This document shows, piece after piece, positions 14,543-63,999 of a DNA stretch of 64,000 nt (positions within the stretch are counted from its first letter, which is position 1; the number at the start of each line of letters is the position of its first letter). The translations under genes were made by a program, and so were the position numbers. The stretch is from Bacteroidota bacterium (GTDB lineage Bacteria; Bacteroidota; Bacteroidia; Bacteroidales; JACABE01), in NCBI GenBank assembly GCA_013377005.1, contig JACABE010000021.1, positions 4,294 through 68,293 on the forward strand. The letters are read 5' to 3'. The notes below the pieces were generated by a model. The model saw only the letters and a list, made by a program, of their open reading frames with translations, was not told where the DNA came from and made no database searches.

Positions 14543-14557
14543 TTCTTGAAGTGATGA

Positions 14558-27732: not shown

Positions 27733-27749
27733 CAAAAGATTTTTTCTAT

Positions 27750-29776: not shown

Positions 29777-29811
29777 GTCTTTAGAAGTATTTAATTTTTA
29801 TTATGTTATTG

Positions 29812-30231: not shown

Positions 30232-30251
30232 ATTGTGATTTTTTATATGGT

Positions 30252-32543: not shown

Positions 32544-32565
32544 ATTATTTATAGTAATTATATGA

Positions 32566-33819
32566 TTATCTTACAATTATTTTTTTAGTAATTGAGTTGG
32601 ATGAATCGGAAAGTTGTATAAAGTACAATCCAGATAATAAATTTGCTATATCAATTTTGTTTTCAGAAGACTTTAACATTTTACTGAGTATAACTTTTCC
32701 TTGTGCATCCATAATTTTTAAATAATATGAATGATTGTAACTGTTGATTATTAGAATATCTTGTGCAGGATTTGGGTAAATATCAACAAAAGAGTTTGTT
32801 GGAATAGATTCTATCCCAACAGTACCATTAAAATAAGAGACACCACCACCAGTGGCTATCCATGGCTTTTGAAACTTATCTAAGGCTATGCTTGTAACTT
32901 GTGTATTCACCAAGCCATCGGTAACGGAATATGAAACCCAGTTCGTTCCATCGAATCTACTAATACCACCATCAAAATTATAATCAGCAAATACGCCAAC
33001 CCATATATTTCCATCAACATCAGTTTTCATATCACGAACAAAATTGTTGTACAAACCATCATTTGCTCTATAGTTTTTAACCCAAACATTAGAAGTGTTA
33101 AGTTTAGTGATACCATAAAAAGTGCCAATATATCGGTTGTTATTAAGGTCAAAAGCAATTGCGAAAGTATTGTCATCGAGTAAACTATCTGTTGTTAATT
33201 TTGTAAAATTTGTAAAAGTTGTTCCGTGGAGCTTTGAAACACCTCCCATTTGGGTGCAAAACCACATATCACCAGTTAAGTCAGAAGAAATATAAGAAAT
33301 AGAGTTCGTCGAAATGCCATTACTAGTAGTATAATTGGTGAATGTTCCCTGATTGAATTTGGAAACCCCACTTTGAGTTGCAAACCAAACACTTCCATCT
33401 GGAGCTCCATAAATATAATTTACATTATTATCTATAAGACCTTGTGTTGTAGTAAAATTAGTCCATGAAGTTCCATTAAACTTACTAACGCCATTATTTG
33501 TTCCTACCCATACGTTATTGCTTTTATCTGTGGCAATACAAACTGCATAATTATCTATTAAACCATTAGTAGTTGTATATGAAGTCCATGTTACATCGTT
33601 ATATTTTGCAACACCAGAAGTAGTAGAAACCCATTTTACATTATTAGTATCTATTGCAATTCCTGTTACAAAGTTATCAATAAGCCCATTTGTTGTTGTA
33701 TAATTAATAAAATTCTGACTTTTCCCATTCGAATAAGAGAAAAGCAAAATAAAAATCATTGAAACCATTAAAAAATGATTCTTTGATACATTTTTAATTT
33801 TTAACGCTGATTTTTTCAT
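32566..33819 (-). CDS. Beta-propeller protein (two-component-regulator propeller repeats) with a T9SS CTD
   Basis: At least 7 repeats of TT.NGLIDN.V..IA.D..NN.WVGT..GVSKFNG, then IYPNPAQDILI...GLYFIQL...KKIIVR. Confidence 0.7.
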   Translation of the reverse strand: MKKSALKIKNVSKNHFLMVSMIFILLFSYSNGKSQNFINYTTTNGLIDNFVTGIAIDTNNVKWVSTTSGVAKYNDVTWTSYTTTNGLIDNYAVCIATDKSNNVWVGTNNGVSKFNGTSWTNFTTTQGLIDNNVNYIYGAPDGSVWFATQSGVSKFNQGTFTNYTTSNGISTNSISYISSDLTGDMWFCTQMGGVSKLHGTTFTNFTKLTTDSLLDDNTFAIAFDLNNNRYIGTFYGITKLNTSNVWVKNYRANDGLYNNFVRDMKTDVDGNIWVGVFADYNFDGGISRFDGTNWVSYSVTDGLVNTQVTSIALDKFQKPWIATGGGVSYFNGTVGIESIPTNSFVDIYPNPAQDILIINSYNHSYYLKIMDAQGKVILSKMLKSSENKIDIANLLSGLYFIQLSDSSNSITKKIIVR

Positions 33820-33837
33820 TTTTTCTATTTTTAAAAA

Positions 33838-36009
33838 TTATTTATTCAATACAATTTTACTTTGTTGAACCAATTTACCATCAACCTTTATCATAATAAA
33901 ATAAATCCCGTTGCTTAAATCAGAAAGATTCAGGGTTGATTGGTTGCTGTTTTTCAGAACCTCTTTTCCATAAATATTGATAATTTCGGTTTCAAAGCTA
34001 TTGATTGAAGCGGGTATTGATAAATTTATAATGCTTTGGGTTGGGTTTGGATAAATTATAATTTTCTGAGTTAAACTGTTATTTTCAGGAATACCCACTG
34101 TAGGCGTATAAGCAGATGAAATAGAAGTACAACCATTAGCATCTGTAACCTGAACTTGATATGATCCAGCTTGGGGAGGAGTATACGTATTTCCTGTAGC
34201 ACCTTGAATAATGTTGTTGTTGAAATACCATTGATTTCCAGAGCTGGCACTGGATGTCATTGTATTTCCTGTTTGTGAAATTGTTGGTGTTACAGGTGAC
34301 GAATATAATATAACAGATGTTGTATTGGTAGCAATATCTGAACCACTGGTTACAGTAACTGTATAACTTGTATTAGAAGTTGGAACTACTGTAGGATTTT
34401 GTAAAGTGGAAGTAAATCCAGCAGGAGATGATGTCCATTGGTAGGTATAGGAAGTTCCTCCACTTGGAGTAGAATTTAATTGAACTGTTGACCCTGGACA
34501 AACATTTACAGGCATTGCCGTTGCACTTACAGTTAAAGTGCTACTTCCTGTAATATTTACAGTAACAGAGGCTGTATCGGAACATCCAATAGCAGTATTG
34601 GTTATAATTACAGTATAAGTAGCGTTAGAAGTTGGAGAAATACTAGGATTTTGTTGCGTTGATGTAAAACCGGAAGTTGAAGTCCAAGCATAAGAATAAG
34701 TGGGACTGGATTCTGTAACCGATGTTGCTGAGGAACTTAAGGTAACTGCTGTGCCCGAAGTTACTAGAGTAGAAGAAGCACTTGCCAAAGCAATTGGAGC
34801 TCTTACGTAACATAATTCATATCTATAAGCATGAACAGATTTTGCATTTGAAATAGTTTGTAAAGTTGTTCCGTTTGGACTTACCTCGAATACACTACCA
34901 CCAGGATTACATACTAATTCATTTCCATTTCCTAATTGTTGCGAATTTCCCATATCACTTGCAGTAAATGAAGGAATTGTGGGGTTAATAACTGTTGTAG
35001 GTCCAACAATTGAACCAGCTGTATAGGTGTAATTATATCCATTATAGGGAGGATTCCAAATAGCAACTTTTACATTTCCACCGCTATTATTATTATAGAC
35101 ACACATATAATTTGGATATAATGGATTTGTAGATGGGATCCAATGTGCATCATGAATTACGTTAAATCCACTATTGTTAGCTGTTGAAGAAAGTCCATAT
35201 GTTGCAGGATTCCCCCAACGATATAGGAAATCACCACCCTTTCCGGAATTTCCTCCAGTATGTGTTGCAGCTTGAGCTGTTGTAGTACTATGGTCAATTA
35301 CATAAATTTCGCTCAATGCATGAGAGCTAATCATAATTTGGTCTAATTGAGGATTGTAATCAATACCGTTCATGTGAAACCAATCTTGTTTAATAGAATA
35401 ATTTACGTTCATTCTTTCTGGATGTTCAGACACATTGGTAACATAAGTTGATGTTACACTCGAATATACGCTTTGGCACAAATGATCCCACAAATGCCAT
35501 TCCCAAACTATGGTTCCAGTTGTAGCACCTGTAGGTTTAACTTCTATAATTTTTTCTGACCAAACAGTTATGGTTGATGAACAGCCTACGGTAGTTGGAG
35601 ATGCACTTTTTGTCTCATAACAAACCAATAAGACGTTACCATTTGGTAATGCACAAACATCGTGGTGCATTTGTGTTGAGGCATCTGATACTGCATATTC
35701 CCAAACAGTAGTTCCTGCCCAATTGACTTTTCTCACTTTACCTGTAATACCACCTTGACCAATACTTCCCGATTGATATTTGACCGTTTGAAGTATTGTG
35801 TCCCCTGGCAGAAGATAAGCAGAATATGCAGTAGATGAGCTTAAAGCCCATGTTTTATATGTAGTTCCTGTAGTATCAATCAACTTTGCCTGAGTCGTGT
35901 TTTGAGTTGCGTAAAAGGTATACATTCCCCATTTTTGCGACATTACTTTTGTGCAATTTATCGAAATAGCCCAAAGTATTATAAATGATAAAATCGTTTC
36001 TTTTCTCAT
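33838..36009 (-). CDS. Arylsulfotransferase (ASST)-like beta-propeller protein with three Ig-like repeats and a T9SS CTD
   Basis: MHHDVCALPNGNVLL, WEWHLWDH, FHMNGIDYNP and VIHDAHW resemble the ASST family. The C-terminus IYPNPTQSIINL...GIYFIMI...KIVLNK is a T9SS CTD. Confidence 0.5.
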   Translation of the reverse strand: MRKETILSFIILWAISINCTKVMSQKWGMYTFYATQNTTQAKLIDTTGTTYKTWALSSSTAYSAYLLPGDTILQTVKYQSGSIGQGGITGKVRKVNWAGTTVWEYAVSDASTQMHHDVCALPNGNVLLVCYETKSASPTTVGCSSTITVWSEKIIEVKPTGATTGTIVWEWHLWDHLCQSVYSSVTSTYVTNVSEHPERMNVNYSIKQDWFHMNGIDYNPQLDQIMISSHALSEIYVIDHSTTTAQAATHTGGNSGKGGDFLYRWGNPATYGLSSTANNSGFNVIHDAHWIPSTNPLYPNYMCVYNNNSGGNVKVAIWNPPYNGYNYTYTAGSIVGPTTVINPTIPSFTASDMGNSQQLGNGNELVCNPGGSVFEVSPNGTTLQTISNAKSVHAYRYELCYVRAPIALASASSTLVTSGTAVTLSSSATSVTESSPTYSYAWTSTSGFTSTQQNPSISPTSNATYTVIITNTAIGCSDTASVTVNITGSSTLTVSATAMPVNVCPGSTVQLNSTPSGGTSYTYQWTSSPAGFTSTLQNPTVVPTSNTSYTVTVTSGSDIATNTTSVILYSSPVTPTISQTGNTMTSSASSGNQWYFNNNIIQGATGNTYTPPQAGSYQVQVTDANGCTSISSAYTPTVGIPENNSLTQKIIIYPNPTQSIINLSIPASINSFETEIINIYGKEVLKNSNQSTLNLSDLSNGIYFIMIKVDGKLVQQSKIVLNK
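34110..34800 (-). repeat. Three tandem Ig-like modules of about 75 aa inside the ASST-like gene (approximate bounds)
   Basis: Repeats share SSTL...YSYAWTSTSGFTSTQQNPSISPTSNATYTVIITN / YTYQWTSSPAGFTSTLQNPTVVPTSNTSYTVTVTS / GNQWYFNN...GNTYTPPQAGSYQVQVTD. Confidence 0.5.
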
Positions 36010-51592: not shown

Positions 51593-54289
51593 ATGGAAAA
51601 CTCACTTTTTGCAGCACTGGAAATCAACACTCTAAACAAAGAGAAAGAAGCCAATTACAATGGATTTATTGAATCTAGAAAATTACCAAATATTTTTGAC
51701 AACGGAAATGACCCAAATACCAAAATAGAAGTAATGATTGAACCAACCAACAACCTTAAAGAGCCTCAGAAGTTTACTTATGAAGAAGTAATGGAAAAGT
51801 CTACGGCTTATTTTCAAGGAGATACATTAGCCGCAAGTGTATGGATGAATAAATACGGTCTAAAAGACAGTGCTGGCAACTTATATGAGTTATCTCCTGA
51901 TGATATGCACCATAGAATTGCTTCTGAAATTGCCCGTATTGAGAAAAAATATCCAAATCCAATGTTGGAAAATGAGATTTATGATTTACTTAAAGACTTT
52001 AAATATATTATTCCTCAAGGTAGTCCAATGGCTGGAATTGGGAATAATTTTCAGGTTGCTTCTCTTTCAAATTGCTTTGTAATAGGTAATAATGGAAATT
52101 CTGATTCCTATGGTGGTATTATGAAAATTGATCAAGAACAAGTTCAGTTAATGAAACGTCGCGGTGGAGTTGGACATGACTTATCTCACATTCGTCCATC
52201 AGGAAGCCCCGTAAAAAATAGTGCTTTAACTTCAACCGGTATTGTTCCTTTTATGGAAAGATATTCAAACTCAACAAGGGAAGTAGCACAAGACGGGCGA
52301 AGAGGTGCATTAATGTTAAGTATTTCAATTAAACATCCTGACTCTGAAAATTTTATTGATGCAAAATTAGAAGAAGGAAAAGTAACCGGAGCAAACGTTT
52401 CTGTGAAAATTGATGATGAATTTATGCAAGCTGTTGTTGAAAATAAAATGTATCGACAGCAATATCCAATAGATTCTAAAAATCCTGCTGTAATAAAAGA
52501 AATTGACGCACGGCAATTATGGGATAAAATTATTCAGAATGCTTGGCAATCAGCAGAACCAGGGATTCTTTTCTGGGACACTATTTTAAAAGAATCAATA
52601 CCTGACTGCTACGCTGATTTAGGTTTTAAAACTACATCAACTAATCCCTGTGGAGAAATACCACTTTGTCCTTATGATAGTTGTAGACTTTTAGCTATCA
52701 ATTTATACAGTTACGTCGAAAATCCGTTTACACCAGAGGCTAGTTTTAACTCAGAACTTTTTGTAAAACATGCACACATGGCTCAGCGTATGATGGACGA
52801 TGTAATAGATCTAGAACTAGAAAAAATAGAAAAAATATTAGAAAAAATAGATGCTGATCCGGAAGAAGAAGAAATAAAAAGAACTGAAAGAAATCTTTGG
52901 CTGAATATCAAAATGAAAGCTCTGGAAGGAAGAAGAACTGGTTTTGGAATTACAGCAGAAGGAGACATGCTTGCAGCATTGGGTTGCAAATATGGGACTG
53001 AAGTTGCTACCGACTTTTCCGTTGAAGTACATAAAATGCTAGCTCTGGAAGCTTACAGATCTTCTATAATTTTAGCAAAAGAACGTGGTGCATTTCCCTT
53101 ATATGACACTCAAAGAGAAATGAATAATCCTTTTATTCTTCGTCTAAAAGAAGTGGCACCTTTGGTTTATCAAGATATGGTAAAGCATGGGAGAAGAAAC
53201 ATTGCTTTATTAACCATTGCACCGACAGGAAGTGTAAGTATTTGTACACAAACAACTTCTGGGATTGAACCTGTTTTTATGATTTCTTATAAAAGAAGGA
53301 AAAAAGTTAATCCAAACGATAAAAATGTAAATGTTTCTTTTGTTGATGAAACTGGTGATTCATGGGAGGAATACAACGTTTTTCATCCAAAATTTTTACA
53401 ATGGCTTAAAGTAAATAATTATAATGTTGATGAAGTAAAGCTTTATAATGAAGCACAACTTGAAAATATTATTAAAAAATCACCTTATTACCAAGCCACT
53501 TCCAATGATATTGATTGGGTTAGCAAAGTCAGAATGCAGGGTGCTGTTCAAAAATGGGTTGATCATTCTATTAGTGTTACTGTAAATGTACCCAAAGATA
53601 CTTCCAAAGAATTGGTAAGTAATATATATCAAACAGCTTGGGAAACAGGTTGTAAGGGAATTACTATTTATAGGGATGGGTCTCGTGCAGGAGTATTGGT
53701 TGCTCATTCTGATACTAAAGAGGATGATTATGAATTCAGAGAAACAAAAGCACCTACTCGCCCTAGGAAATTAGAAGCGGAAGTTGTTCGTTTTCAAAAT
53801 GATTACGAAAAATGGATTGCTGTAGTGGGTGTTTTAGATAATAAACCTTACGAAGTTTTCACAGGAAAAGCTGATGGGTTTTATCTTCCACCATGGGTTA
53901 CAAAAGGATATGTTATCCGAAATAAAGAAGGTAATGAAAAAGCTCGTTACGATTTCCAATTTGAAGATAAAGAAGGTTATAAAGTTACGATAGAAGGACT
54001 TTCAAGGTCTTTTAACAAGGAATACTGGAACTATGCAAAATTAATTTCAGGGATTTTACGTCATGGTATGCCATTGCCTTTTGCTGTAGATTTAATTTCT
54101 AACCTAAACCTTGAAATAGATTCTATCAACACATGGAAAAATGGAGTGGTAAGAGCACTTAAAAAATATATACCCGATGGAACATTAGCTTCAGAAGCGT
54201 CTTGTCCGGAATGTGGCGCGAAAGGAGGCTTAATTTACAAAGAAGGTTGTTTAGCGTGTAAACATTGCGGATATTCAAAATGTGGCTAA
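51593..54289 (+). CDS. nrdJ: Adenosylcobalamin-dependent (class II) ribonucleotide reductase
   Basis: The catalytic loop is TNPCGEIPL, with SNCFV, RRGGVGHDLS and TIAPTGS. The C-terminal Cys-rich tail is CPECG...CLACKHCGYSKCG. ATG at 51593 preferred over TTG at 51581. Confidence 0.88.
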   Translation: MENSLFAALEINTLNKEKEANYNGFIESRKLPNIFDNGNDPNTKIEVMIEPTNNLKEPQKFTYEEVMEKSTAYFQGDTLAASVWMNKYGLKDSAGNLYELSPDDMHHRIASEIARIEKKYPNPMLENEIYDLLKDFKYIIPQGSPMAGIGNNFQVASLSNCFVIGNNGNSDSYGGIMKIDQEQVQLMKRRGGVGHDLSHIRPSGSPVKNSALTSTGIVPFMERYSNSTREVAQDGRRGALMLSISIKHPDSENFIDAKLEEGKVTGANVSVKIDDEFMQAVVENKMYRQQYPIDSKNPAVIKEIDARQLWDKIIQNAWQSAEPGILFWDTILKESIPDCYADLGFKTTSTNPCGEIPLCPYDSCRLLAINLYSYVENPFTPEASFNSELFVKHAHMAQRMMDDVIDLELEKIEKILEKIDADPEEEEIKRTERNLWLNIKMKALEGRRTGFGITAEGDMLAALGCKYGTEVATDFSVEVHKMLALEAYRSSIILAKERGAFPLYDTQREMNNPFILRLKEVAPLVYQDMVKHGRRNIALLTIAPTGSVSICTQTTSGIEPVFMISYKRRKKVNPNDKNVNVSFVDETGDSWEEYNVFHPKFLQWLKVNNYNVDEVKLYNEAQLENIIKKSPYYQATSNDIDWVSKVRMQGAVQKWVDHSISVTVNVPKDTSKELVSNIYQTAWETGCKGITIYRDGSRAGVLVAHSDTKEDDYEFRETKAPTRPRKLEAEVVRFQNDYEKWIAVVGVLDNKPYEVFTGKADGFYLPPWVTKGYVIRNKEGNEKARYDFQFEDKEGYKVTIEGLSRSFNKEYWNYAKLISGILRHGMPLPFAVDLISNLNLEIDSINTWKNGVVRALKKYIPDGTLASEASCPECGAKGGLIYKEGCLACKHCGYSKCG

Positions 54290-54290
54290 A

Positions 54291-54329
54291 AAAACGGGCT
54301 GTCTCAATTTAGAGACAGCCCGTTTTTTT
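54291..54329. terminator. Strong bidirectional intrinsic terminator after nrdJ
   Basis: AAAACGGGCTGTCTC-AATTTA-GAGACAGCCCGTTTTTTT. The perfect 11-bp stem is at 54295-54305/54312-54322. Confidence 0.85.
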
Positions 54330-54348
54330 AACATATTAACTTATTTTC

Positions 54349-54918
54349 TTACAAAAAAATCAAAGCCAGTATCGGTACTACTAATCCTGCTAAAACAAAC
54401 CAAATACCGCGTTTGCTAAGACTGTTTTTGCTTTTGGCAATAATAAACAATCCACTTATAGCAATAATAATCATCCCTACACAAAACAAATCTGAAAACC
54501 ACAGCCACCACTTACCAGGGTTGTAATGAAGAAAATTAACTTCAAAAAATAAAGGTCTTTTGCTTATTTTTTCAATATAACCTTCTTTAGTTTCTATATT
54601 TAAGGTAACAGAGCCATTGTCAATAAAAATTTTCAATGTACGACTATCAGGGAAAAAGTATTTTTTATAATGATCTTCTTCATGATAATTTTTCAGAAGT
54701 TCCATTACCCAGTCTCTATTTACTGATGCTTTATCGATATTTTGATTAATGGCAAACTCTTTGTAAGTGATATTATAATTAGGATTCCAATCTTTTTTGT
54801 GGTTTAATGCAATACCTGAGATGCAATAAATAATAGTGAGTCCGAAAAAAAAATAACCAATATCCCTATGTAGAATTCTATTCCATTTCCTAAAAATTCT
54901 CAATCTGTTTGATGACAT
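54349..54918 (-). CDS. PepSY-associated TM-helix protein
   Basis: WNRILHRDIGYFFFGLTIIYCISGIALNH at the N-terminus, a soluble middle section and two C-terminal TM helices. Confidence 0.55.
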   Translation of the reverse strand: MSSNRLRIFRKWNRILHRDIGYFFFGLTIIYCISGIALNHKKDWNPNYNITYKEFAINQNIDKASVNRDWVMELLKNYHEEDHYKKYFFPDSRTLKIFIDNGSVTLNIETKEGYIEKISKRPLFFEVNFLHYNPGKWWLWFSDLFCVGMIIIAISGLFIIAKSKNSLSKRGIWFVLAGLVVPILALIFL

Positions 54919-54943
54919 AGGAGCTATAAGTTAGAAAAGAAAT

Positions 54944-55543
54944 TTATTTTTTAATAGCTTTTAAGGTTTTGCAATCAATTGCATATATAGAGATGTAGGT
55001 TTTCCCACTTTCTTCCAATTTTTTGCGAAATTCTTTTACACTAGCATAAGGATCTGTTTCTTCTGAAGTCTCTTTTACTTGAGCTTCGCCTTTTTTGTTT
55101 TTCTGCCCTTTTAGAGCTTTGCCATCTTCTGTGCAAACTTTTTGATCTTTATCTTCTAAAGAAGCTTTGATTTCAGCTTCCCAGTCATTTAAAAAGTTAG
55201 CATCAACTTTTTGATCTTCTATAACAGTACCTGTAATTTCGACATCAGTGCCTTCATATTTAAGATCAAAAGTTGACATTTCTCCACCTGCGTTCACTTT
55301 AACAGTAGTTTCAGGATCAGCACCAAAGAGAAATAATTTCTTTCCACTGTGTTTGCAAATATGAGAAACAGTACCTGTAATAACAATATCTTTACCAGCC
55401 CAGGTTTCAGGTTTAACTAAAAAACTGTCAACAGTAATTGCAACATTGGTTGAATCAGTTTTCTGCTTTCCTTTGTTTTTACAACCAATGTTACTTCCAA
55501 TAATAAGAATTCCAATGAATAATAAAAAAAATATCTTTTTCAT
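54944..55543 (-). CDS. Lipoprotein with an OB-fold-like module, function unknown
   Basis: Lipobox NIGC. The segment WAGKDIVITGTVSHICKHSGKKLFLFG...VEITGTV precedes a Lys/Glu-rich linker. Confidence 0.45.
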   Translation of the reverse strand: MKKIFFLLFIGILIIGSNIGCKNKGKQKTDSTNVAITVDSFLVKPETWAGKDIVITGTVSHICKHSGKKLFLFGADPETTVKVNAGGEMSTFDLKYEGTDVEITGTVIEDQKVDANFLNDWEAEIKASLEDKDQKVCTEDGKALKGQKNKKGEAQVKETSEETDPYASVKEFRKKLEESGKTYISIYAIDCKTLKAIKK

Positions 55544-55699
55544 GTTTTTAAATTTAAATGTTTTATACTTTGCAAAAATAGTAAATTTTTATTACAAAAT
55601 TAACAGAAATTATAAAATATAAAAATATAAGGCATGAATCAATTTTATTAATCCATGCCTTATATTCAATATTTCTGTTTAAATTTATAGAAATCTTTT

Positions 55700-56470
55700 T
55701 TATTTAACTATCTTAGCATCTTCCATAATTACTTCATAAAAGTAATCATAACCTAAATCTTTGTTTAATGCAATTTTGCCTTCTAAGGTAACAATATCTC
55801 CAACTTTAGCAGTAAATTTACCTGTAATAGTTAAATCGAATTTGCCTTCAGATTCAGTTCCATCTTGGATGTGGATCCAGTTTTTTTCCATAATATCTGG
55901 ACTAAACTTTGTAACTTGTCCTTTAACCTTTATAGTTTTACCAGAATAAGATGCTTTTTTTGCATACAAGTCTGCAATTTTAACACCTCCGGCAATTGGA
56001 TCAATTTTAACTTCAATTTTAGTCATTTTAGGTTTTGCGCCATTCATAACATTTGAGTCTGATGATGACATATTTCCATGAGCAGACACTTCAGCCATTT
56101 CTTTTTTTACAAAATCAGATGTTTTACTTAAATTATCCAGAAATAATACTTCTTTAAAAGTTCTGTTAAGTTCTTTACTTACAAAGTCTTTCATGGGATA
56201 ACCACCTTTATAATATAGTGTTTCTCCTATTTTTGAGTCCGTTTTCGGAACAGCAGCCCATAATGTATCTTTTTCATTTACTTGTGGATTACCTTCTTCT
56301 TTTAATCGGAAATAAGTGTATTGACTGGTTTGTATTATTTCCTGAACAGTAACTGTGTGAACGCCGATTTTTAATAATTCAGCTTGTTTTGGATCCATTT
56401 TTGATTTACAACCAACTAAGCCTATTAAACCTATAAATATTAGTTTTAAAATATTAGAATAAACTCTCAT
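55700..56470 (-). CDS. Two-domain lipoprotein, function unknown
   Basis: Lipobox LVGC. The N-domain is SQYTYFRLKEEG...LWAAVPK...FVSKELNRTFKEVLF. After a His/Met/Ser linker, the C-domain is OB-like (SGKTIKVKGQVTKF...WIHIQDG...GDIVTLEGK). Confidence 0.45.
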   Translation of the reverse strand: MRVYSNILKLIFIGLIGLVGCKSKMDPKQAELLKIGVHTVTVQEIIQTSQYTYFRLKEEGNPQVNEKDTLWAAVPKTDSKIGETLYYKGGYPMKDFVSKELNRTFKEVLFLDNLSKTSDFVKKEMAEVSAHGNMSSSDSNVMNGAKPKMTKIEVKIDPIAGGVKIADLYAKKASYSGKTIKVKGQVTKFSPDIMEKNWIHIQDGTESEGKFDLTITGKFTAKVGDIVTLEGKIALNKDLGYDYFYEVIMEDAKIVK

Positions 56471-56538
56471 TTTTTATATTTTTTTAATTTATATGGATGC
56501 AAAAATACTGAATATATTTTACAAACCATAAGGCGAAA

Positions 56539-56569
56539 GACAAATATCATAATCGAAATGATATTTGTC
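56539..56569. promoter_or_regulatory. Perfect 12-7-12 palindrome in the divergent intergenic region of the cytochrome island
   Basis: GACAAATATCAT-AATCGAA-ATGATATTTGTC. It lies 69 nt from the start of the lipoprotein gene (56470) and 227 nt from the ccsBA ATG (56796). Confidence 0.4.
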
Positions 56570-56795
56570 AAAAACAGATGCTTATTATGTAACAATAGTT
56601 TCTTAACAACAAATTGCAAAATACTGTTATACTGTAATTAGAAGTTTCGTATTTTAATTGAAAAAGAAAAGAAATACTCAATATTAAGAAGTTTCTAAAT
56701 GATAAATAAAAAAAATTAGATGAAATTTACTTTGTTTTTTTTGTAATATTGCAAAGAGTTTAGGTTAAACTTTATTCTTTAATTAAATATTTTCA

Positions 56796-59700
56796 ATGAA
56801 ACGCTTTTTAAACTTTTTTTCATCCTCAAAAGCTACAATGATATTGCTGTTTATTTTAGCATTAGCAATGGCTGTAGCAACATTCATCGAAGATAAATAT
56901 GATACCGTATCTGCCAGAAGTATAGTATATAATACAAGGTGGTTTGAATTATTATTCGTGCTACTTGCTCTAAACTTAATAGGACATATTAAAACATACA
57001 ACTTGATTTCCTGGAAGAAAATAGGTGGACTTATATTTCATCTTGCTTTTATTTTAATGATTATTGGTGCTGGTATTACAAGATATTTTGGATTTGAAGG
57101 GAATATGCATATTCGTCAAGGCGAAGCATCAAAAATAGTGTATAGTGCAGATCCTTATTTAATGATATCATATACTGATAATAAGCAAAATTATAACTAT
57201 GATCATCCCATTCGAATTGGTTTAATTACAGATAATTCATTTCACATAAGTATTCCAACAGATGATAAAGGAAATATTGATATAAAGTTTAAAGAATTTA
57301 TTAGCAATGCAGTTGAAAAAATAGAAGAAAATGTTGCTGGAGGAAAGAATATGATAGAACTTTCTGTATTAACATCTTCTGGTTTGCAAAATGTTTTCAT
57401 AAATGAAGGAGAGGTAAAGAATTTGGGGTTAATTAAAATTTCTTATAATAATAGTAGTGATAATGATGCCGTTAAGTTAGATGAAAAAGAAGGAAAACTT
57501 TATATTTCTTCGCCTTATGATATTCGACAAGCTACAATGGATGAATCAGTTGTTGATACTTTAATGAAAGATTCTTTATCAATTTTTCAGGAAAAGAAAA
57601 TTTATAGTACCAATGGTTTATCATTTGTGTGTAATAAGTTTTATAAAAGTGCCCTAAAGAAAATTGTTTCAGGAGTTTCTACTAATATGGAAAGTAATGG
57701 AAATGATGCAATCGTTCTTGAAGTAGCTATTAATGGAAAAAAACATGAGGCTATTGTGATGTATAATGCCAGTTATTCTTCTGGGTATAACGATTATAGT
57801 TTTGATGGTACTAATATTAAAATTGGTTTTGGAAGCAAAACCATTGAACTTCCTTTTGCCTTGTATCTGAAAAATTTTATTTTCGAAAAATATCCCGGAT
57901 CTGAAAGACCCTCTTCCTATAAAAGTGAAGTTACATTAATTGACGATAAAAACAATGTCAAAGAAGATTATAGCATTTTTATGAATAATGTTTTGGATTA
58001 TAAACAATATAGATTTTTCCAATCTTCCTATGATACAGATGAGCGAGGTACAATATTGTCTGTAAATCATGATTACTGGGGGACTTTTGTTTCTTACTTA
58101 GGTTATACATTATTGACCATAGGTTTTATCATTACATTATTCAATAAAAACTCACGTTTTCTTTCTTTGAGAAAATTTATAACTGATGCAAGAAATAAAC
58201 GAAAATCTATTTTATTGTGTATTATTTTCTTATTAGGATTTAATGGAATTGGTTTTTCTCAAAATAATTCAGCTAATATAATAGATGCTTTTCATGCAGA
58301 TAAATTCGGACATTTACTTACACAAACTTATGATGGACGTTTTGCACCTGTACATACCTTAGCTATAGATTTAATGCACAAAATTGCCAAAAAGGACAAT
58401 TTCAATATTGAAGGAAAAGGTAAAATGAATGCTATGCAGGCATTCATTGATATGATGGCTGAGCCTCAGTTTTGGCAACAACAGAAAATTATTTATGTTC
58501 CTCAGAAAGCCATAAGAGATATCATAGGAATTAATACTGAATATGCATCTTTCCTTGATTTCTTTGATGCAAATCAGCAATATAAAATGGATAAATATAT
58601 CAATGATGCTTTTCGAAAAAAACAATCCGAAAAAAACAAAGTTGATAAAGAAATTTTAAAAGTTGACGAGCGATTAAACATCTTTAGTATGATTATTAAT
58701 GGAAGTATTCTTAAGATATTTCCTGAACAGAATTCAAAAAATAATAAGTGGATAAGTTGGGACGATAATTCCTCAATGATTCCCTTAACAGGAGCTATTA
58801 GCATTATTAATAATGATTTGCAACTGAAAACGTTTAATTATGCTAATATCATGCACGCCTATATTTTTGAGGTACAGAAAGGTATTAGCACATCAGATTA
58901 TTCAAAAGCAGATAAAATTGTAGGTTATATTTCTGATATCCAGAAACAAATCTCAGATCCAAGCTTATTACCATCTGATACAAAAAGAAATGCTGAGATT
59001 TTTTATAACAATGCCGATATTTTTATCTTTCTTAAGAATGTATATGCTTTATTTAGTGTATTGCTTCTTGTTCTGGCATTTATTGAAAATGTAAAAACAC
59101 AAAAGAGTAAATTTATTGGATATACTTTAAATATCTTAACAATACTTTTGGTGATAGCTTTTTTGTACCACACATTAGGAATGGGATTAAGATGGTATAT
59201 CACTGAACACGCACCTTGGAGCAATGGTTATGAAGCTTTAATCTTAGTTGCTTGGGGAGCATTACTTGCAGGATTTAGTTTTGCAAAAAATTCAAAACTC
59301 ACATTAGCAGCAACCACTTTATTAGCTTTCTTTGTGTTAATGACGGCAAGTCATAGTAGCTATGACCCTCAATTAACAAACCTGCAACCGGTTTTAAAAT
59401 CCTACTGGCTTATTATTCATGTAGCTACACTTACAATCAGTTATGGGTTCTTGGGTTTGGGATTTATACTTGGTTTAATGAATCTGTTTATTTATTTATC
59501 AAAAACAAAAAGCAATTCTACTCGTCTAGATTTGTTAATTACTGAAAATACCTATATTATTGAAATGAACTTAATCATTGGACTATTCTTAGCCACTTTA
59601 GGAACATTTTTGGGAGCCGTATGGGCAAATGAATCATGGGGAAAATATTGGGGATGGGATGCTAAAGAAACATGGGCTCTGGTGATTGTAGTAACATATT

Positions 59701-59951
59701 CTATTATCATACACATGAGATTTATTCCAAAGTTTAATACTAAATTTGCCTTTAATGTTGCATCTGTATTAGGGTTTTCAAGTGTAATAATGACTTTTGT
59801 GGGTGTAAATTATTATTTGTCAAAAGGAATGCATAGTTATGGTGCAGGAGATACTCCTGTTTTTCCATTATGGGCATGGGGCACGATTATTGCTATTATC
59901 ATACTTATTATCTCTGCTGGAATAAAAGAGAGAAATAATAAATTAAATTAA
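56796..59951 (+). CDS. ccsBA: Fused System II cytochrome c synthase (ResB/CcsB + CcsA)
   Basis: 1051 aa. The N-terminal ResB-like part has TM helices and a large periplasmic loop. The C-terminal CcsA part has the Trp-rich haem-handling motif WGKYWGWDAKETW and flanking His residues. Confidence 0.85.
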   Translation: MKRFLNFFSSSKATMILLFILALAMAVATFIEDKYDTVSARSIVYNTRWFELLFVLLALNLIGHIKTYNLISWKKIGGLIFHLAFILMIIGAGITRYFGFEGNMHIRQGEASKIVYSADPYLMISYTDNKQNYNYDHPIRIGLITDNSFHISIPTDDKGNIDIKFKEFISNAVEKIEENVAGGKNMIELSVLTSSGLQNVFINEGEVKNLGLIKISYNNSSDNDAVKLDEKEGKLYISSPYDIRQATMDESVVDTLMKDSLSIFQEKKIYSTNGLSFVCNKFYKSALKKIVSGVSTNMESNGNDAIVLEVAINGKKHEAIVMYNASYSSGYNDYSFDGTNIKIGFGSKTIELPFALYLKNFIFEKYPGSERPSSYKSEVTLIDDKNNVKEDYSIFMNNVLDYKQYRFFQSSYDTDERGTILSVNHDYWGTFVSYLGYTLLTIGFIITLFNKNSRFLSLRKFITDARNKRKSILLCIIFLLGFNGIGFSQNNSANIIDAFHADKFGHLLTQTYDGRFAPVHTLAIDLMHKIAKKDNFNIEGKGKMNAMQAFIDMMAEPQFWQQQKIIYVPQKAIRDIIGINTEYASFLDFFDANQQYKMDKYINDAFRKKQSEKNKVDKEILKVDERLNIFSMIINGSILKIFPEQNSKNNKWISWDDNSSMIPLTGAISIINNDLQLKTFNYANIMHAYIFEVQKGISTSDYSKADKIVGYISDIQKQISDPSLLPSDTKRNAEIFYNNADIFIFLKNVYALFSVLLLVLAFIENVKTQKSKFIGYTLNILTILLVIAFLYHTLGMGLRWYITEHAPWSNGYEALILVAWGALLAGFSFAKNSKLTLAATTLLAFFVLMTASHSSYDPQLTNLQPVLKSYWLIIHVATLTISYGFLGLGFILGLMNLFIYLSKTKSNSTRLDLLITENTYIIEMNLIIGLFLATLGTFLGAVWANESWGKYWGWDAKETWALVIVVTYSIIIHMRFIPKFNTKFAFNVASVLGFSSVIMTFVGVNYYLSKGMHSYGAGDTPVFPLWAWGTIIAIIILIISAGIKERNNKLN

Positions 59952-59975
59952 TACTAACCTAAAAAAAGAACGACA

Positions 59976-60488
59976 ATGAAAAAAACGTTAATTGTAATAG
60001 CTTGTATGCTATTTTTATTAAGTAATGGGTTATTAGCTCAAAATAAATATGTAGGAGCTAAAAACTGCAAAATGTGCCATATGGCAAAAGGCAAACAGTA
60101 TCCAACATGGTCTGAATCAAAACACGCAAAAGCTTTTGAAACACTAAAAGGACCTGAAGCATTAAAAATTGCAAAAGAAAAAGGTATTGCAGATCCTTCA
60201 ACAGATGAAAAATGCTTAAAATGTCATTCAACTGTTGCTTCAATTGATGCCAAATTGAATGGAGGAATTACCAAAGAAGAAGGCGTTTCATGCGAAACAT
60301 GCCATGGAGCCGGAAGCGCTTATAAAGCTCCTGCTGTTATGAGAAATCATGATGCATGTGTTACCAATGGATTGATTATTCCTGATGAAAAATTATGTTT
60401 AAAATGCCATAATTCAGGAAGTCCTACTTTTAAAGGGTTTGATTTTGCAACATATAGTGCAAAAATAACCCACAAAAATCCTAAATAG
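59976..60488 (+). CDS. Periplasmic tetrahaem cytochrome c
   Basis: Signal peptide and four CxxCH sites (CKMCH, CLKCH, CETCH, CLKCH) in 170 aa. Confidence 0.85.
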   Translation: MKKTLIVIACMLFLLSNGLLAQNKYVGAKNCKMCHMAKGKQYPTWSESKHAKAFETLKGPEALKIAKEKGIADPSTDEKCLKCHSTVASIDAKLNGGITKEEGVSCETCHGAGSAYKAPAVMRNHDACVTNGLIIPDEKLCLKCHNSGSPTFKGFDFATYSAKITHKNPK

Positions 60489-60524
60489 GAAATAGGAGAA
60501 CTTCAAATAGCTGAAGTAAAGAAG

Positions 60525-60564
60525 AATAATCCGCATTCTGTTGAATAACGGAATGCGGATTATT
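60525..60564 (+). other. Intercistronic stem-loop between the two cytochrome genes
   Basis: AATAATCCGCATTC (60525-60538) pairs perfectly with GAATGCGGATTATT (60551-60564) around a 12-nt loop. The only following T-tract is weak (TTAATTAT). Confidence 0.5.
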
Positions 60565-60592
60565 TAATTATAAACTATAAATAAAATTATAT

Positions 60593-62092
60593 ATGAAATT
60601 ACCACGTACATATTACAATAATATTTCCTATTTTGGAACCATTATTGCTATAATAGCTTGGATAACACTAATATTTTTTGTTATTCAAATTAATATTTTC
60701 AGAATTAATAATGTTTATTTTGATTTATATACATTTGTTGTAACTCCTGCTTTCTTGGTAATAGGACATATTCTTATTCCCTTTGGAATGTATAGAACCA
60801 GGAAAAAACTTAAAAAAGGACTCCCTGTTTCAAATGATAAATTATTTGTTTTAGATCTTAAAGATTCAAAAACAAGAAATGCTATACTGATATTTTCTAT
60901 TGTATCTGTGTTTTTTGTTATTTCAACCATAGTTGGGAGCTATAAAGCTTTTCATTATACTGAATCTGTTGAATTTTGCGGAAAACTTTGTCATAAAGTT
61001 ATGCAACCTGAATATGTTGCTTATCAGAATTCTCCGCATGCAAGAGTAAAGTGTGCCGAATGTCATGTGGGCGAAGGTGCTGATTTTTACGTAAAATCAA
61101 AAATGTCCGGTTTACGACAAGTTTATAAATATATTTTGGGAACTTACCCCAGACCTATTGCAACACCAATAGAGAATTTACGTCCAGCAAGAGAAACTTG
61201 CGAAAAATGTCACTGGCCACAAAAATTTTATACCAATGCCTTACGCAAGGAAAAATATTATCTTGCAGATTCAGCTAATACTGAATGGAATATTACTTTA
61301 AATATGAAAATTGGAGCCAATCATCAGGCATTAGGATTAACAGAAGGAATTCACTGGCATATAAATCCTAATTTCCAGATTGATTATAAATCTAATCCCA
61401 AAAGAAATGAAATATATTCAGTAAAAATTACCAATAAAAAAACTGGTGTTGAAACCATCTATAAAAATGATGAGCTTGAAGTAAAACCAGATGCTATTTC
61501 AAAAATGGAATCAAGAGGAATGGATTGTATGGATTGCCACAACAGACCTTCTCATGAATACAGATCTCCTTCGAAATATATTAATACCCTACTTGCTTCT
61601 CAGCCTCAATTAGCTTCTATTCCATGGTTAAAAAGTGCTGTGATGGATGCCGTTAAAGTGCCTTATTCTACCACTGATTCGGCTGCAAATGAAATTAAAA
61701 ATAAAATCATAAAGTATTATAAAGAGCAATATCCTGCTATTTATAAAAAGAATGGTAAAGAAATTTTAAGTGCTATTGAAGAAATTAAAACAGTATATTT
61801 TAAAAATACTTTCCCCGAAATGAAAGTTGATTATAGTGTTTATCCGAGACATATTGGTCATCTTGAGTCTAATGGATGTTTCAGATGTCATAATGATAAA
61901 TTTAAATCACCTACAGGAAAGAAAATTTCTAAAGATTGTAATCTGTGTCATACTATTGTTGCCCAAGGTAAATCTAATGATATGAAATATACCGGAATAA
62001 ATAGCACTTTGGAATTTATGCATCCTGTTGATATTGGAGATGCATGGAAAGAATCAAATTGCATGGATTGTCATGCTGAAATGTATAAATAA
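60593..62092 (+). CDS. Membrane-anchored NapC/NirT-like multihaem cytochrome c (seven haem sites)
   Basis: It has three N-terminal TM segments. FCGKLCHKVMQPEYVAYQNSPHARVKCAECHVG parallels the NapC/NrfH quinol-dehydrogenase signature. The haem sites are CGKLCH (CX3CH), CAECH, CEKCH, CMDCH, CFRCH, CNLCH and CMDCH. Confidence 0.8.
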   Translation: MKLPRTYYNNISYFGTIIAIIAWITLIFFVIQINIFRINNVYFDLYTFVVTPAFLVIGHILIPFGMYRTRKKLKKGLPVSNDKLFVLDLKDSKTRNAILIFSIVSVFFVISTIVGSYKAFHYTESVEFCGKLCHKVMQPEYVAYQNSPHARVKCAECHVGEGADFYVKSKMSGLRQVYKYILGTYPRPIATPIENLRPARETCEKCHWPQKFYTNALRKEKYYLADSANTEWNITLNMKIGANHQALGLTEGIHWHINPNFQIDYKSNPKRNEIYSVKITNKKTGVETIYKNDELEVKPDAISKMESRGMDCMDCHNRPSHEYRSPSKYINTLLASQPQLASIPWLKSAVMDAVKVPYSTTDSAANEIKNKIIKYYKEQYPAIYKKNGKEILSAIEEIKTVYFKNTFPEMKVDYSVYPRHIGHLESNGCFRCHNDKFKSPTGKKISKDCNLCHTIVAQGKSNDMKYTGINSTLEFMHPVDIGDAWKESNCMDCHAEMYK

Positions 62093-62117
62093 ATATTTTA
62101 ATCAATTAAATTATATT

Positions 62118-62918
62118 ATGTCTATGAAAAAAAGGATTATTTTTTCAATTATGGTAGTAATATTAACTATCAGTTTTAATCTATTTACAAAGAGTTTGCA
62201 AGCTCAAACTACAGGAAATTTGACCTTTAGTGTTACAACAACATCTACAGGAAACTTCAGCCCCAGGCATGTTATTGCCATTTGGATTGAAAAATCTGAC
62301 GGTACTTTTGTAAAAACAAAACTTAAAAAAGCAGCTGCCAGGGTTCAATATTTGAATCAATGGGTTGCCAAATCAGGATCGAATGTTGTAGATGCTACTA
62401 CCGGAGCTACCGTTAGTGCTCATCAAACCGAAAGTATTACATGGAATGCTACCGATGTTACCGGAGCTACAGTTGCTGATGGCGATTATAAATTATGGAT
62501 ACAAATGGCATGGTCTAATAATAATGGACCTACTTACAGCATTGCTTTTACCAAAAATGCTACTGCTGCTCATATTACTCCTGCTGATCAGACTAACTAT
62601 ACAGGAATGGTTTTGGATTGGACTCCTAATACCGCTGGTATTGCCGAAAATCAAAACCAAAGCACTTTTACAGTTACTCCTAATCCTGTTACAAGTCAAA
62701 GTTCAATTAATTACTCATTAAAAGAATTAACGGATGTAACTATAGGATTATATGATGTTACAGGTAAATTAATAAATGTATTGTTTGATGATAACCAAAC
62801 TGCAGGTAATTATAGTTTATCTTTAGCTTCAGAAGAAAAACTAAAACCAGGCACTTATTTTGTAAAAATGAATACCGGCAAAACTCAACATACCGAAAGA
62901 GTTTTGATTTTAAAATAA
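62118..62918 (+). CDS. DUF2271-like domain protein with a T9SS C-terminal sorting domain
   Basis: The ATG at 62118 gives a signal peptide (SLQAQ). LTFSVTT...SPRHVIAIWIEKSDGTFVKT...VDATTGATV...DGDYKLWIQ resembles DUF2271. The C-terminus TVTPNPVTSQSSINY...GTYFVKM...RVLILK is a T9SS CTD. Confidence 0.5.
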   Translation: MSMKKRIIFSIMVVILTISFNLFTKSLQAQTTGNLTFSVTTTSTGNFSPRHVIAIWIEKSDGTFVKTKLKKAAARVQYLNQWVAKSGSNVVDATTGATVSAHQTESITWNATDVTGATVADGDYKLWIQMAWSNNNGPTYSIAFTKNATAAHITPADQTNYTGMVLDWTPNTAGIAENQNQSTFTVTPNPVTSQSSINYSLKELTDVTIGLYDVTGKLINVLFDDNQTAGNYSLSLASEEKLKPGTYFVKMNTGKTQHTERVLILK

Positions 62919-62944: not shown

Positions 62945-62993
62945 ATTGAGAAATATCATAAAATTGTTTTGCAATTTTATGATATTTCTCAAT
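62945..62993. terminator. Very long perfect hairpin between convergent genes (bidirectional terminator or boundary element)
   Basis: ATTGAGAAATATCATAAAATTG (62945-62966) pairs perfectly with CAATTTTATGATATTTCTCAAT (62972-62993) around the loop TTTTG. The downstream sequence is T-rich (TTGCTTTTACTGTGTTTTTTTTT). Confidence 0.6.
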
Positions 62994-63030: not shown

Positions 63031-63999
63031 TTACACTCCTTCTACCACTATTTTCGCGAGGCTAAAGGTAAATTCCTGTTCTTCGTTGTCGGAAGTTAGT
63101 TCTACGCCGCTTTGTTGGAAATCTTTGTAACCAACAGCCGTAATTTTAATGGTGTATGTGCCCGGTACTACTTCGTCGGTGTAAAATTCGCCATCCTCAT
63201 CGGTAGTAGTGCTGAGGGTAGTGCCCAAAATTTCAACCATAGCATCTTCTATTACTTCTTCGGTTTCGGCGTCGGTAACTGTGCCTTGGAAAATGGCAGC
63301 ATTTACTTCTGCATCGGCTAATTTAACCGTCTTCTTTTTAGGCGAAACGTCTAAAATATAATTGTGTTGATTGTCGGGATCGTCTTCAAAAATCAATTTG
63401 CCGGCTTTGGCAATGGTAGCGGTGAGTTTCCACAATTCGTCGTAAGCCTTTACCCTGTTGCCGGTGGCAATGTAGCGGGCTTTTTTGGCCTGTTCCTGTT
63501 GTATATTAGCGGTATCCAAATCGGAGGAGAGGTGAGTAATTTCATCAATAGTGGTTTGCGACAAGCCTTTTTGCAAAAGCACAGTTTTGTACTTATTCAG
63601 CGTAACCACAAAGTTTTTTAGAAACAATATGAGCTTGCTTTGGGTGTTGATTACCTTTTTTAGTTCGGGATAGCCAAATTCGTAGAGGTGAAGATGATCG
63701 CCCGGAAAAACCTTTTCTACGTAATACCTTATGGTTCGTACGGCGGCAATGGCTGAGTTGGAGAACGTAATTACTTTCTGAGTTTCCTGCATTTGCAGGG
63801 CTAGCAACACATAGTCGGCTGGAATGGCTTCTACTTCGCCAATTTTATGGATAAGCTGATTGGAATAATCGGGACTCAATTCGGGATCGAAAGCCGTAAA
63901 TCTCGCAAGATCAGTCTTAAATGATTGATGAATGTTTTTCGAAATTTCCAGTTGTCTCGATTGAGAAATGCCTTTGGAAGTGTGTTGTGATGTTTTCAT
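63031..63999 (-). CDS. Hypothetical protein: helical N-terminal region plus a carboxypeptidase-regulatory-like beta-sandwich
   Basis: 322 aa with no signal peptide. The C-terminal FQGTVTDAETEEVIEDAMVEILG...TDEDGEFYTDEVVPGTYTIKITAVGYKDF fits CarboxypepD_reg. The gene is visibly more GC- and CpG-rich than its neighbours. The start codon is at the window edge. Confidence 0.55.
   Translation of the reverse strand: MKTSQHTSKGISQSRQLEISKNIHQSFKTDLARFTAFDPELSPDYSNQLIHKIGEVEAIPADYVLLALQMQETQKVITFSNSAIAAVRTIRYYVEKVFPGDHLHLYEFGYPELKKVINTQSKLILFLKNFVVTLNKYKTVLLQKGLSQTTIDEITHLSSDLDTANIQQEQAKKARYIATGNRVKAYDELWKLTATIAKAGKLIFEDDPDNQHNYILDVSPKKKTVKLADAEVNAAIFQGTVTDAETEEVIEDAMVEILGTTLSTTTDEDGEFYTDEVVPGTYTIKITAVGYKDFQQSGVELTSDNEEQEFTFSLAKIVVEGV

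Follow-up and report, generated by a model that had tools for sequence, protein, structure and literature searches.

A putative ImcH-type electron-export operon with a T9SS-sorted DUF2271 protein in a Bacteroidota genome

Background

Where do electrons drawn from the quinol pool go when multihaem cytochromes are encoded without a terminal reductase beside them? This question is raised by a cluster of seven genes, here designated A to G, that lies in a stretch of 64 kb (hereafter the window) of a low-GC Bacteroidota metagenome-assembled genome (MAG; assembly GCA_013377005.1, contig JACABE010000021.1, positions 4,294 to 68,293). The plus-strand genes D to G encode a cytochrome c synthase, two multihaem c-type cytochromes and a DUF2271 protein with the sorting domain of the type IX secretion system (T9SS), and the divergent genes A to C encode a PepSY-like membrane protein and two lipoproteins. 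An initial annotation, made from the sequence of the window, pointed out that no reductase is encoded with them.

In Geobacter, the only group for which these functions have been shown, the inner-membrane cytochrome ImcH oxidizes menaquinol, with the protons set free in the periplasm, and passes the electrons to the soluble trihaem cytochrome PpcA; it is needed for the reduction of high-potential extracellular acceptors and has no dedicated enzyme partner (Pimenta et al. 2023, 10.1101/2023.05.03.539133). Homologues of ImcH have already been catalogued in Bacteroidetes/Bacteroidota, for example in Draconibacterium sediminis (Zhong and Shi 2018, PMC6295460), and a role in extracellular electron transfer has been suggested for secreted multihaem cytochromes of this phylum (PMC11495043).

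In this work the window was compared with homologous loci (labelled L001, L002 and so on), using profile searches, structure prediction and the analysis of gene neighbourhoods and DNA elements. From these analyses we propose, with moderate confidence, that genes D to G specify the part of an ImcH-type electron-export branch that lies in the inner membrane and the periplasm.

Results

Gene F and the ImcH family

The seven open reading frames (ORFs) were found at the expected coordinates (Table 1), and profile searches bore out the domain calls of the initial annotation. The gaps between the plus-strand genes are 24, 104 and 25 nt, and the last is 31 nt if the gene-caller start of G at 62124 is used.

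Table 1. Genes and DNA elements of the cluster, in coordinates of the window
Feature	Coordinates	Strand	Remarks
Perfect 19-nt inverted repeat, 6-nt loop, 100% complementary	54287..54330		between the convergent RNR gene and gene A
A, PepSY_TM_like_2 membrane protein, 189 aa, three transmembrane segments	54349..54918	-	PF16357
B, OB-fold lipoprotein, 199 aa	54944..55543	-	AlphaFold2 and Foldseek
-7 promoter box of the Bacteroidetes type (TAnnTTTG) upstream of B	55573..55580	-	kept in B orthologues
Terminator-like 20-bp hairpin with T run, between C and B	55623..55667	-	parts C from the B-A unit
C, lipoprotein with two OB folds (residues ~37-110 and 160-254) and a disordered linker	55700..56470	-	AlphaFold2 and Foldseek
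-7 promoter box of the Bacteroidetes type (TAnnTTTG) upstream of C	56500..56507	-	also in C orthologues
Element TTTTTGTAATATTGC	56738..56752	+	44 nt 5' of the ccsBA start
D, fused System II cytochrome c synthase CcsBA, 1051 aa	56796..59951	+	Pfam ResB and Cytochrom_C_asm
E, secreted tetrahaem cytochrome c of the c554 family, 170 aa	59976..60488	+	signal peptide, four CxxCH
19-bp RNA hairpin in the E-F spacer	60524..60565	+	-31.7 kcal/mol, z = -8.95
F, ImcH-family inner-membrane cytochrome (by architecture and transitive similarity), 499 aa	60593..62092	+	three transmembrane segments, CX3CH and six CX2CH
G, DUF2271 protein with signal peptide and type A T9SS C-terminal domain	62124..62918 (start possibly 62118)	+	putative flavinylation motif D92-A-T-T-G-A-T98
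Perfect 22-nt inverted repeat after G	62945..62993	+	terminator-like score; end of the plus-strand unit

ImcH has been defined by a length of 495-519 aa, three transmembrane (TM) segments, an atypical CX3CH motif beside the TM domain and six CX2CH motifs, its homologues having lengths of 463-603 aa (Zhong and Shi 2018, PMC6295460). F agrees with this description in length, number of TM segments, haem motifs and the extent of its similarity to NapC/NirT/NrfH. Its hydrophobic segments span residues 17-35, 48-66 and 97-115, and those of the Geobacter protein GSU3259 residues 13-35, 45-67 and 100-122 (PMC6295460). The seven haem sites of F are the CX3CH motif (CGKLCH) at residue 129 and CxxCH motifs at residues 154, 203, 312, 429, 449 and 490; their spacing (24, 49, 109, 117, 20, 41) is nearly identical to that of GSU3259 (24, 49, 106, 117, 20, 38), and the spacing in the Draconibacterium sediminis homologue is 24, 49, 110, 117, 20, 41 (PMC6295460, Table S3). 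Proteins 48-52% identical to F were found in a Melioribacter sp. (L026), in Rosettibacter and in Caldithrix; the haem spacing of the first is exactly that of the published M. roseus ImcH homologue, and that of the Caldithrix protein is close to its published counterpart. Among the 84 homologues of F that were aligned, the seven motif histidines, six further histidines and one glutamine are conserved in at least 97%, a set that would fit the six bis-His haems and the His/Gln-ligated haem 1 of the Geobacter ImcH model (10.1101/2023.05.03.539133).

The likeness of F to NapC/NirT/NrfH is confined to the third TM segment and the first haems. Cytochrom_NNT (PF03264) matches residues 95-185 at 4e-14 and NrfH matches at 5e-17, the C-terminal part matches c3/c7 haem domains, and the best solved relative is NrfH (2j7a_C) over residues 119-223; all NCBIfam scores lie far under the family cut-offs. 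F thus shares with NapC, NirT, NrfH and CymA a similarity to Cytochrom_NNT and to the NrfH model TIGR03153 over residues ~95-208, whereas it has three TM segments instead of one, seven haems instead of four or five, and a first site of the CX3CH type. By its architecture and by transitive similarity, F is assigned to the ImcH family. A mapping of Geobacter residues E127, K173 and Y188 onto F was also attempted; the nearest residues, the conserved E124 and K170 and also Y185, whose conservation is below 97%, are shifted by one position from where the haem motifs would place them, and no equivalence is claimed.

Absence of a reductase and the neighbourhoods of imcH

E and F are the only ORFs of at least 60 aa with a CxxCH motif in the window, and, as the initial annotation had stated, neither of them carries the CxxCK active-site haem motif of NrfA-type nitrite reductases. 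Likewise, no Pfam match to a reductase or to the ApbE family was obtained among the window ORFs scanned; the remaining ones are housekeeping, peptidase or T9SS cargo genes or have no Pfam match. The synteny check that had been suggested gave the same answer on a wider scale, given that clustering of the genes around the 84 imcH homologues revealed no catalytic reductase among the neighbours. Classical NapC/NirT proteins, CymA excepted, differ from F in that a reductase is encoded alongside. Since ImcH-type proteins feed a periplasmic cytochrome pool, a missing reductase is characteristic of the ImcH family and no anomaly; the characterized Geobacter member reduces soluble periplasmic cytochromes (PMC6295460; 10.1101/2023.05.03.539133).

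Another c-type cytochrome gene lies within 6 kb of imcH in 33 of the 72 loci that extend over at least 8 kb. The recurrent neighbours include cytochromes with five to seven haems or a single one, cytochrome b561, NrfC/NrfD-like proteins, Crp/Fnr-type regulators, a DUF5777 "membrane bound beta barrel" protein and a polytopic membrane protein of ~550 aa, and in Ignavibacteria imcH is flanked by giant cytochromes with 16-19 haems. Sets of a DUF5777 barrel and a 7-haem cytochrome stand beside imcH in about 20 other genomes. In L016, L018, L020, L021, L029, L032, L033, L039, L042, L048 and L069 (~position 10001) the set consists of a Cys-rich lipoprotein (~130 aa), the DUF5777 beta-barrel, a monohaem cytochrome c, a 7-haem cytochrome, cytochrome b561 and a cytochrome with five or six haems, and a Crp/Fnr regulator is often found close by. 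This arrangement looks like a candidate porin-cytochrome plus CbcL-like module; DUF5777 was not mentioned in the literature searched. In L001 (11715-15940), and equivalently in L002, another set follows imcH: a 4-haem cytochrome (145 aa), an NrfC-like FeS protein, an NrfD-like membrane protein and a polytopic protein of ~558 aa with an N-terminal coiled coil; the polytopic protein by itself also adjoins imcH in about 12 loci. We considered this set as a cognate reductase and rejected it, given that it is a quinone-interacting module without a catalytic subunit.

These neighbourhoods bear on a different explanation, according to which F and E would form a CymA-like periplasmic hub that feeds soluble reductases encoded elsewhere (for nitrite, N2O, peroxide or oxygen), and G, A, B and C would be unrelated neighbours. 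CymA itself is a precedent for a promiscuous hub of the NapC/NirT type (10.1101/2023.05.03.539133), and the idea gains from the abundance of ImcH homologues (more than 7,800 matches with F as query), from the many Bacteroidales in which imcH stands alone between threonine-biosynthesis, HAD and AhpC/redoxin genes, from the lack of an outer-membrane conduit in the window and from the position of G, whose counterpart is not beside imcH in L002 and lies 9 kb away in L001. Nonetheless, a periplasmic reductase gene is found beside none of the 84 homologues, G-like flavoproteins co-localize with imcH or with cytochrome clusters in several independent lineages, and the giant cytochromes that flank imcH in Ignavibacteria are typical of extracellular electron transfer. 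We regard the hub as unlikely, although it deserves real weight.

The cytochrome c synthase and the tetrahaem cytochrome

D matches PF05140 and PF01578, and its score with TIGR03144 (162 bits) is under the equivalog cut-off of 187.6. A ccsBA gene also adjoins imcH in L010, L022, L027, L077 and other loci of distant lineages. Dedicated CcsBA isoenzymes are known from Wolinella succinogenes, where NrfI serves CxxCK and CcsA1 serves CX15CH. The locus resembles that case in having a System II synthase gene in one operon with a cytochrome of non-standard haem motif, here CX3CH; it differs in that D may simply be the only cytochrome c synthase of the organism.

E matches PF13435 (Cytochrome_C554) at 7.9e-17, and its closest solved relative is cytochrome c554 of Nitrosomonas (1bvb, 2.6e-8). 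In 14 loci (11 in the initial clustering), distant Bacteroidales and Ignavibacteria among them, a homologue of E is encoded at most about 10 kb from imcH. On the basis of this recurrent adjacency and of the family membership of F, we propose that E is the periplasmic acceptor of ImcH.

The relationship with c554 also suggests the opposite direction of flow, that is, from an external or periplasmic donor through the c554-like cytochrome and the NapC/NirT-like protein to the quinone pool, as from c554 to cM552 in Nitrosomonas, a pair formed by a tetrahaem cytochrome and a quinone reductase of the NapC/NirT family. However, no HAO-like or other oxidizing enzyme was found in the window, ImcH homologues have so far been implicated in quinol oxidation alone (PMC6295460), and the haem potentials of Geobacter ImcH, from -358 to -150 mV (10.1101/2023.05.03.539133), would disfavour the transfer of electrons from a weak donor such as Fe(II) to menaquinone. 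Reverse operation is accordingly held to be very improbable.

G, a DUF2271 protein with a T9SS sorting domain

The DUF2271 assignment of G, which the initial annotation had given as a point on which its interpretation could fail, holds at 34.9 bits against a Pfam cut-off of 27.3. The C-terminus of the protein matches Por_Secre_tail (2.1e-10) and TIGR04183 (6.2e-12) as well as solved structures of T9SS C-terminal domains (CTDs), and the hydrophobic N-terminus is compatible with the layout of a type A cargo, that is, a signal peptide together with a CTD. Three other T9SS cargo genes are present in the window (30252-36009); genes of the T9SS machinery were not found in it.

DUF2271 proteins have been shown experimentally to be substrates of ApbE, which flavinylates them at the motif [S/T]GA[S/T] (Meheust et al. 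2021, PMC8238504). In G this motif is T95-G96-A97-T98, inside the sequence DATTGAT, and the 31 members of the G family that were compared all have D92 and A93, while G96 and T98 each reach a conservation of at least 90%. An ApbE encoded elsewhere probably flavinylates G on T98. The family is small (71 matches), and DUF2271 and the T9SS CTD occur together in it except in a few weak or borderline matches.

A G-like gene directly follows imcH in the window and in L005, L085 and L092. Proteins of 424 aa with DUF2271, PKD and T9SS domains, and with the motif DAITGST or DAITGPT, accompany clusters of imcH, DUF5777 and multihaem cytochromes in L033, where the gene is immediately beside imcH, and in L048, where it is ~8 kb away. 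Altogether, relatives of G accompany ImcH or cytochrome/ApbE clusters in no fewer than three other lineages. In L083 an ApbE gene adjoins a homologue that is 41% identical to G; with this ApbE as query, ApbE was found in L083 alone among all the fetched loci.

The L083 genes form part of a redox island (7057-20455) with ApbE, two DUF2271-T9SS proteins, a Laminin_G/T9SS protein of 945 aa with two DUF2271-like repeats, split ResB/CcsA, dihaem and monohaem lipoproteins, a cytochrome c, cytochrome b561, a 7-haem cytochrome, DUF5777 and a NapH-like Fer4_5 protein. In L088 a secreted protein of 183 aa (8406-8957) is encoded directly 5' of a G homologue, downstream of a complex I operon and a Crp-type regulator; its sequence CAKPECH is a possible CX4CH haem site.

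In the literature searched, nothing was found that links ApbE-type flavinylation with T9SS export, nor that joins PepSY proteins with ImcH. A T9SS-addressed, flavinylation-competent DUF2271 protein tied to ImcH/cytochrome clusters appears to be undescribed.

The divergent genes A, B and C

A matches PF16357 with 55.3 bits (cut-off, 27). Its residues H17, H40 and H131 flank the helices and are invariant in 16 homologues of 47-100% identity, a pattern that would allow b-haem to be ligated as in FoxB and other PepSY-like proteins; among PDB chains, FoxB included, none matched A in sequence. For B and C, the AlphaFold2 models (pLDDT 83.6 and 83.3, respectively) agree with the previous description of both proteins as OB-like lipoproteins. 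The model of B contains one OB fold, for which Foldseek finds the N-terminal domain of AsnRS/AspRS and the RPA OB, and its family of 707 representatives has an invariant H61 and C63 in the motif GTVxHxCxH. The model of C is matched by HIN-200, POT1 and Teb1, which include tandem-OB proteins, and its family (2512 proteins) shows a conserved NWIHIQDG motif. The possibility that B and C are paralogues was explored; BLASTP found nothing past the signal peptide and hhalign aligned residues 33-122 of B with the second OB fold of C at a probability of 12%, so that this relationship is not claimed.

The three genes differ in their association with imcH. C-like genes adjoin imcH in the distant loci L038 and L043 and lie ~6 kb from it in L021, a recurrence from which C is probably an accessory of ImcH. 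B is directly upstream of A in 11 of 13 metagenome loci, most of them among unrelated genes; B-A is therefore an autonomous two-gene module that stands beside the imcH operon in this clade alone, and the PepSY/OB pair is probably not an obligatory part of the function of the operon. The PepSY protein is indeed present, as the initial annotation proposed, but in most other genomes it and its OB partner stand in unrelated surroundings. In the close relative L091 (7415-9269) a B-A module, with an A protein 89% identical, follows genes for a GDP-mannose dehydratase and CpsB/CapC; the same types of genes occur in the window at 13487-15373, 40 kb from B-A, which shows a recent rearrangement around the module.

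The joint occurrence of DUF2271 and PepSY-like proteins in flavin- or iron-related redox clusters, to which the initial annotation appealed, is documented: DUF2271 is present in 2,833 of 3,220 PepSY-like clusters, and these have been tied to Fur regulation, VIT1 and TonB-dependent receptors (PMC8238504). This opens an explanation based on iron assimilation, a role that has been proposed for the proteobacterial PepSY-like/DUF2271/ApbE clusters. The PepSY-like protein, the OB lipoproteins and a flavinylated DUF2271 protein would reduce Fe(III) chelates for uptake, and the cytochromes would merely supply reducing power. The three invariant histidines of A are as expected of a b-haem carrier, and the invariant His/Cys pair of B could bind a metal. 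In contrast, the scanned window has no gene for ApbE, DUF4198, an iron transporter or a TonB-dependent receptor, A and G are 7 kb apart in separate transcription units, and in most genomes B-A occurs without any DUF2271 gene. On this evidence we judge iron assimilation improbable as the function of the locus.

Transcription units and DNA elements

The full cluster was also found in L001, L002, L005, L085 and L092, and part of it in L003 and L100. This recurrence indicates that the arrangement is not due to chance, and the presence of three different gene orders among these relatives argues for selection on the neighbourhood within the clade.

From the terminator-like hairpins after C, A and G and the promoter boxes (Table 1), at least three transcription units are predicted: C, B-A and D-E-F-G. 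The plus-strand genes thus form a single predicted unit, with a strong hairpin between E and F, and the divergent genes make up two. The inverted repeat downstream of A is probably a bidirectional terminator that closes the B-A unit. Upstream of D, the core TTTGTAATATTGC of the 15-nt element is identical in six of six genomes whose spacers have otherwise diverged, the full 15-mer being present in five; in the window the element is near-palindromic (TTTGTAAT/ATTGCAAA). It is probably a variant of the -7 promoter box, possibly with an operator.

Hairpins that differ in sequence occupy the matching position of the E-F spacer in L001, L002, L003, L005, L085 and L092, and several of them carry a T run and resemble intrinsic terminators. 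No TAnnTTTG box was found in the E-F and F-G spacers. The E-F hairpin is probably an attenuator or a transcript stabilizer that would favour the soluble cytochrome over ImcH and G.

A sigma-70 promoter scan gave 56 matches against 54 expected and was dropped as uninformative, the TAnnTTTG motif being used in its place. A 28-nt direct repeat upstream of B and C was considered as a shared operator and rejected, since it corresponds to the ordinary Bacteroidetes -7 box. No known RNA family of Rfam was detected in the window.

Several neighbouring genes are worth recording. A minus-strand ORF of 322 aa with a C-terminal CarboxypepD_reg domain (63031-63999) reaches the edge of the window and is perhaps incomplete; it has no counterpart beside the cluster in relatives. 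In L085 an Rnf operon (RnfA/E/G/D/C/B, 10882-15924) directly adjoins the cluster, and a run of similar gene sizes is seen in L092 (10574-15100). Given that RnfG requires ApbE, the organism of L085 at least should encode ApbE somewhere. A minus-strand run of the window (27046-36009) encodes DUF2490 and DUF4956 proteins, a VTC-domain protein, a 160-aa ORF without Pfam match and then the three T9SS-CTD proteins mentioned above, which carry CotH kinase-like and lamin-tail domains, a Reg_prop propeller, and arylsulfotransferase-like and PKD domains, respectively; this run may be a polyphosphate/CotH-related surface module.

Discussion

In the electron-export branch that we propose, D, whose domain identity is observed, would attach haem to both cytochromes. 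F would oxidize menaquinol at the periplasmic face of the inner membrane and, by analogy with the transfer from Geobacter ImcH to PpcA, would pass the electrons to the soluble tetrahaem cytochrome E; a dedicated reductase would be unneeded, given that proteins of the ImcH type supply a periplasmic cytochrome pool. G would be exported by Sec, probably flavinylated in the periplasm on T98, and then perhaps carried by the T9SS to the cell surface, where its flavin could conceivably let it reduce external acceptors such as Fe(III), Mn(IV) or humics, either as the terminal reductase or as a mediator. For the crossing of the outer membrane there is no gene in the window, and the DUF5777 barrel and 7-haem sets of other genomes are candidates for this step. 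C would probably assist ImcH, and B-A may have been recruited in this clade to carry electrons across the membrane through b-haem, as a module of the PepSY-like class.

The comparison with Geobacter supports the first steps of this scheme. F and Geobacter ImcH share the length class, the three N-terminal TM segments, the CX3CH motif with six CX2CH motifs and the NrfH-like region of the quinol site, and in both systems a cognate reductase is lacking and a small soluble multihaem cytochrome serves as partner, in our case by proposal. The partner is of the tetrahaem c554 type in the window and of the trihaem c7 type in Geobacter; in addition, the operon described here has its own fused CcsBA and a T9SS-sorted DUF2271 protein, and its host is without a known outer-membrane porin-cytochrome. 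Another parallel is offered by the PepSY-like flavinylation systems represented by FoxB and VciB (Meheust et al. 2021), which likewise have a three-TM PF16357 protein and a DUF2271 protein with the [ST]GA[ST] motif in one neighbourhood. The cluster differs from them in the absence of ApbE and DUF4198, in the separation of A and G, in the pairing of A with an OB lipoprotein and in the T9SS sorting domain of G; the term "T9SS" is unmentioned in PMC8238504.

Several observations weigh against the export branch. At its outward end, no outer-membrane cytochrome, porin-cytochrome or DUF5777 barrel was found in the 64 kb, so that the locus differs from porin-cytochrome or Mtr-type conduits, in which a barrel gene accompanies a multihaem set. 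ApbE is missing among the window ORFs scanned, and three of six G-family genes chosen without regard to imcH sit among unrelated genes, a fourth being placed after a complex I operon and a Crp-type regulator. The slot after imcH is taken in L001 and L002 by the 4-haem/NrfC/NrfD/polytopic module instead of G, and B-A is usually away from any cytochrome gene. The conserved hairpin after E could uncouple the expression of F and G from that of D and E. In addition, the class of F is assigned from architecture and transitive similarity. Finally, since many imcH homologues stand alone among housekeeping genes, the family could have a general periplasmic role in lineages that are mostly fermentative.

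With these points in mind, the electron conduit to the cell surface that had been suggested for the locus stands only in part: an outward electron route is the most natural reading, but delivery to the surface is not borne out, there being no outer-membrane conduit in the window. Similarly, the claim that such a route was not described for Bacteroidota can be kept for the T9SS-flavoprotein part alone, given that ImcH was already listed in Draconibacterium sediminis.

A broader proposal can be put forward tentatively, and we consider it rather doubtful at present. Bacteroidota may possess an extracellular electron-transfer architecture of their own, in which ImcH- or CbcL-like oxidases and periplasmic cytochromes would deliver electrons to T9SS-anchored, flavinylated DUF2271 terminal reductases, with DUF5777/multihaem sets encoded elsewhere as the outer-membrane conduit. 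In Listeria, whose extracellular electron transfer is based on flavin, the ApbE-like FmnB flavinylates the surface lipoprotein PplA. The architecture would be the Gram-negative counterpart of PplA: the concept of a covalently flavinylated surface protein as terminal component would be common to both, by analogy only. PplA, however, has the FMN_bind fold and not DUF2271, and Listeria is Gram-positive, lacks an outer membrane and oxidizes quinol without a multihaem cytochrome.

Conclusions

The closest relatives are recorded under names (LacPavin, ELA, Loclat, Umea, Kiruna) that suggest lakes or mines as sites of origin, and Lac Pavin and the ELA lakes are iron-rich and stratified. For the family of F, the analysis implies that thousands of proteins named "NapC/NirT family cytochrome c" in Bacteroidota, Ignavibacteria and Calditrichota would be better named ImcH-family quinol oxidases, and the partner sets that recur beside imcH (DUF5777 barrel, 7-haem cytochrome, cytochrome b561 and NrfCD-like proteins) deserve study. 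Should G prove to be flavinylated and a true substrate of the T9SS, the cargo of this system would for the first time be known to include a flavin-based redox protein. G would then also offer a testable handle on extracellular electron disposal by abundant anaerobic Bacteroidota in iron-rich lakes and sediments, a process that in such organisms has so far been inferred solely from catalogues of multihaem cytochromes.

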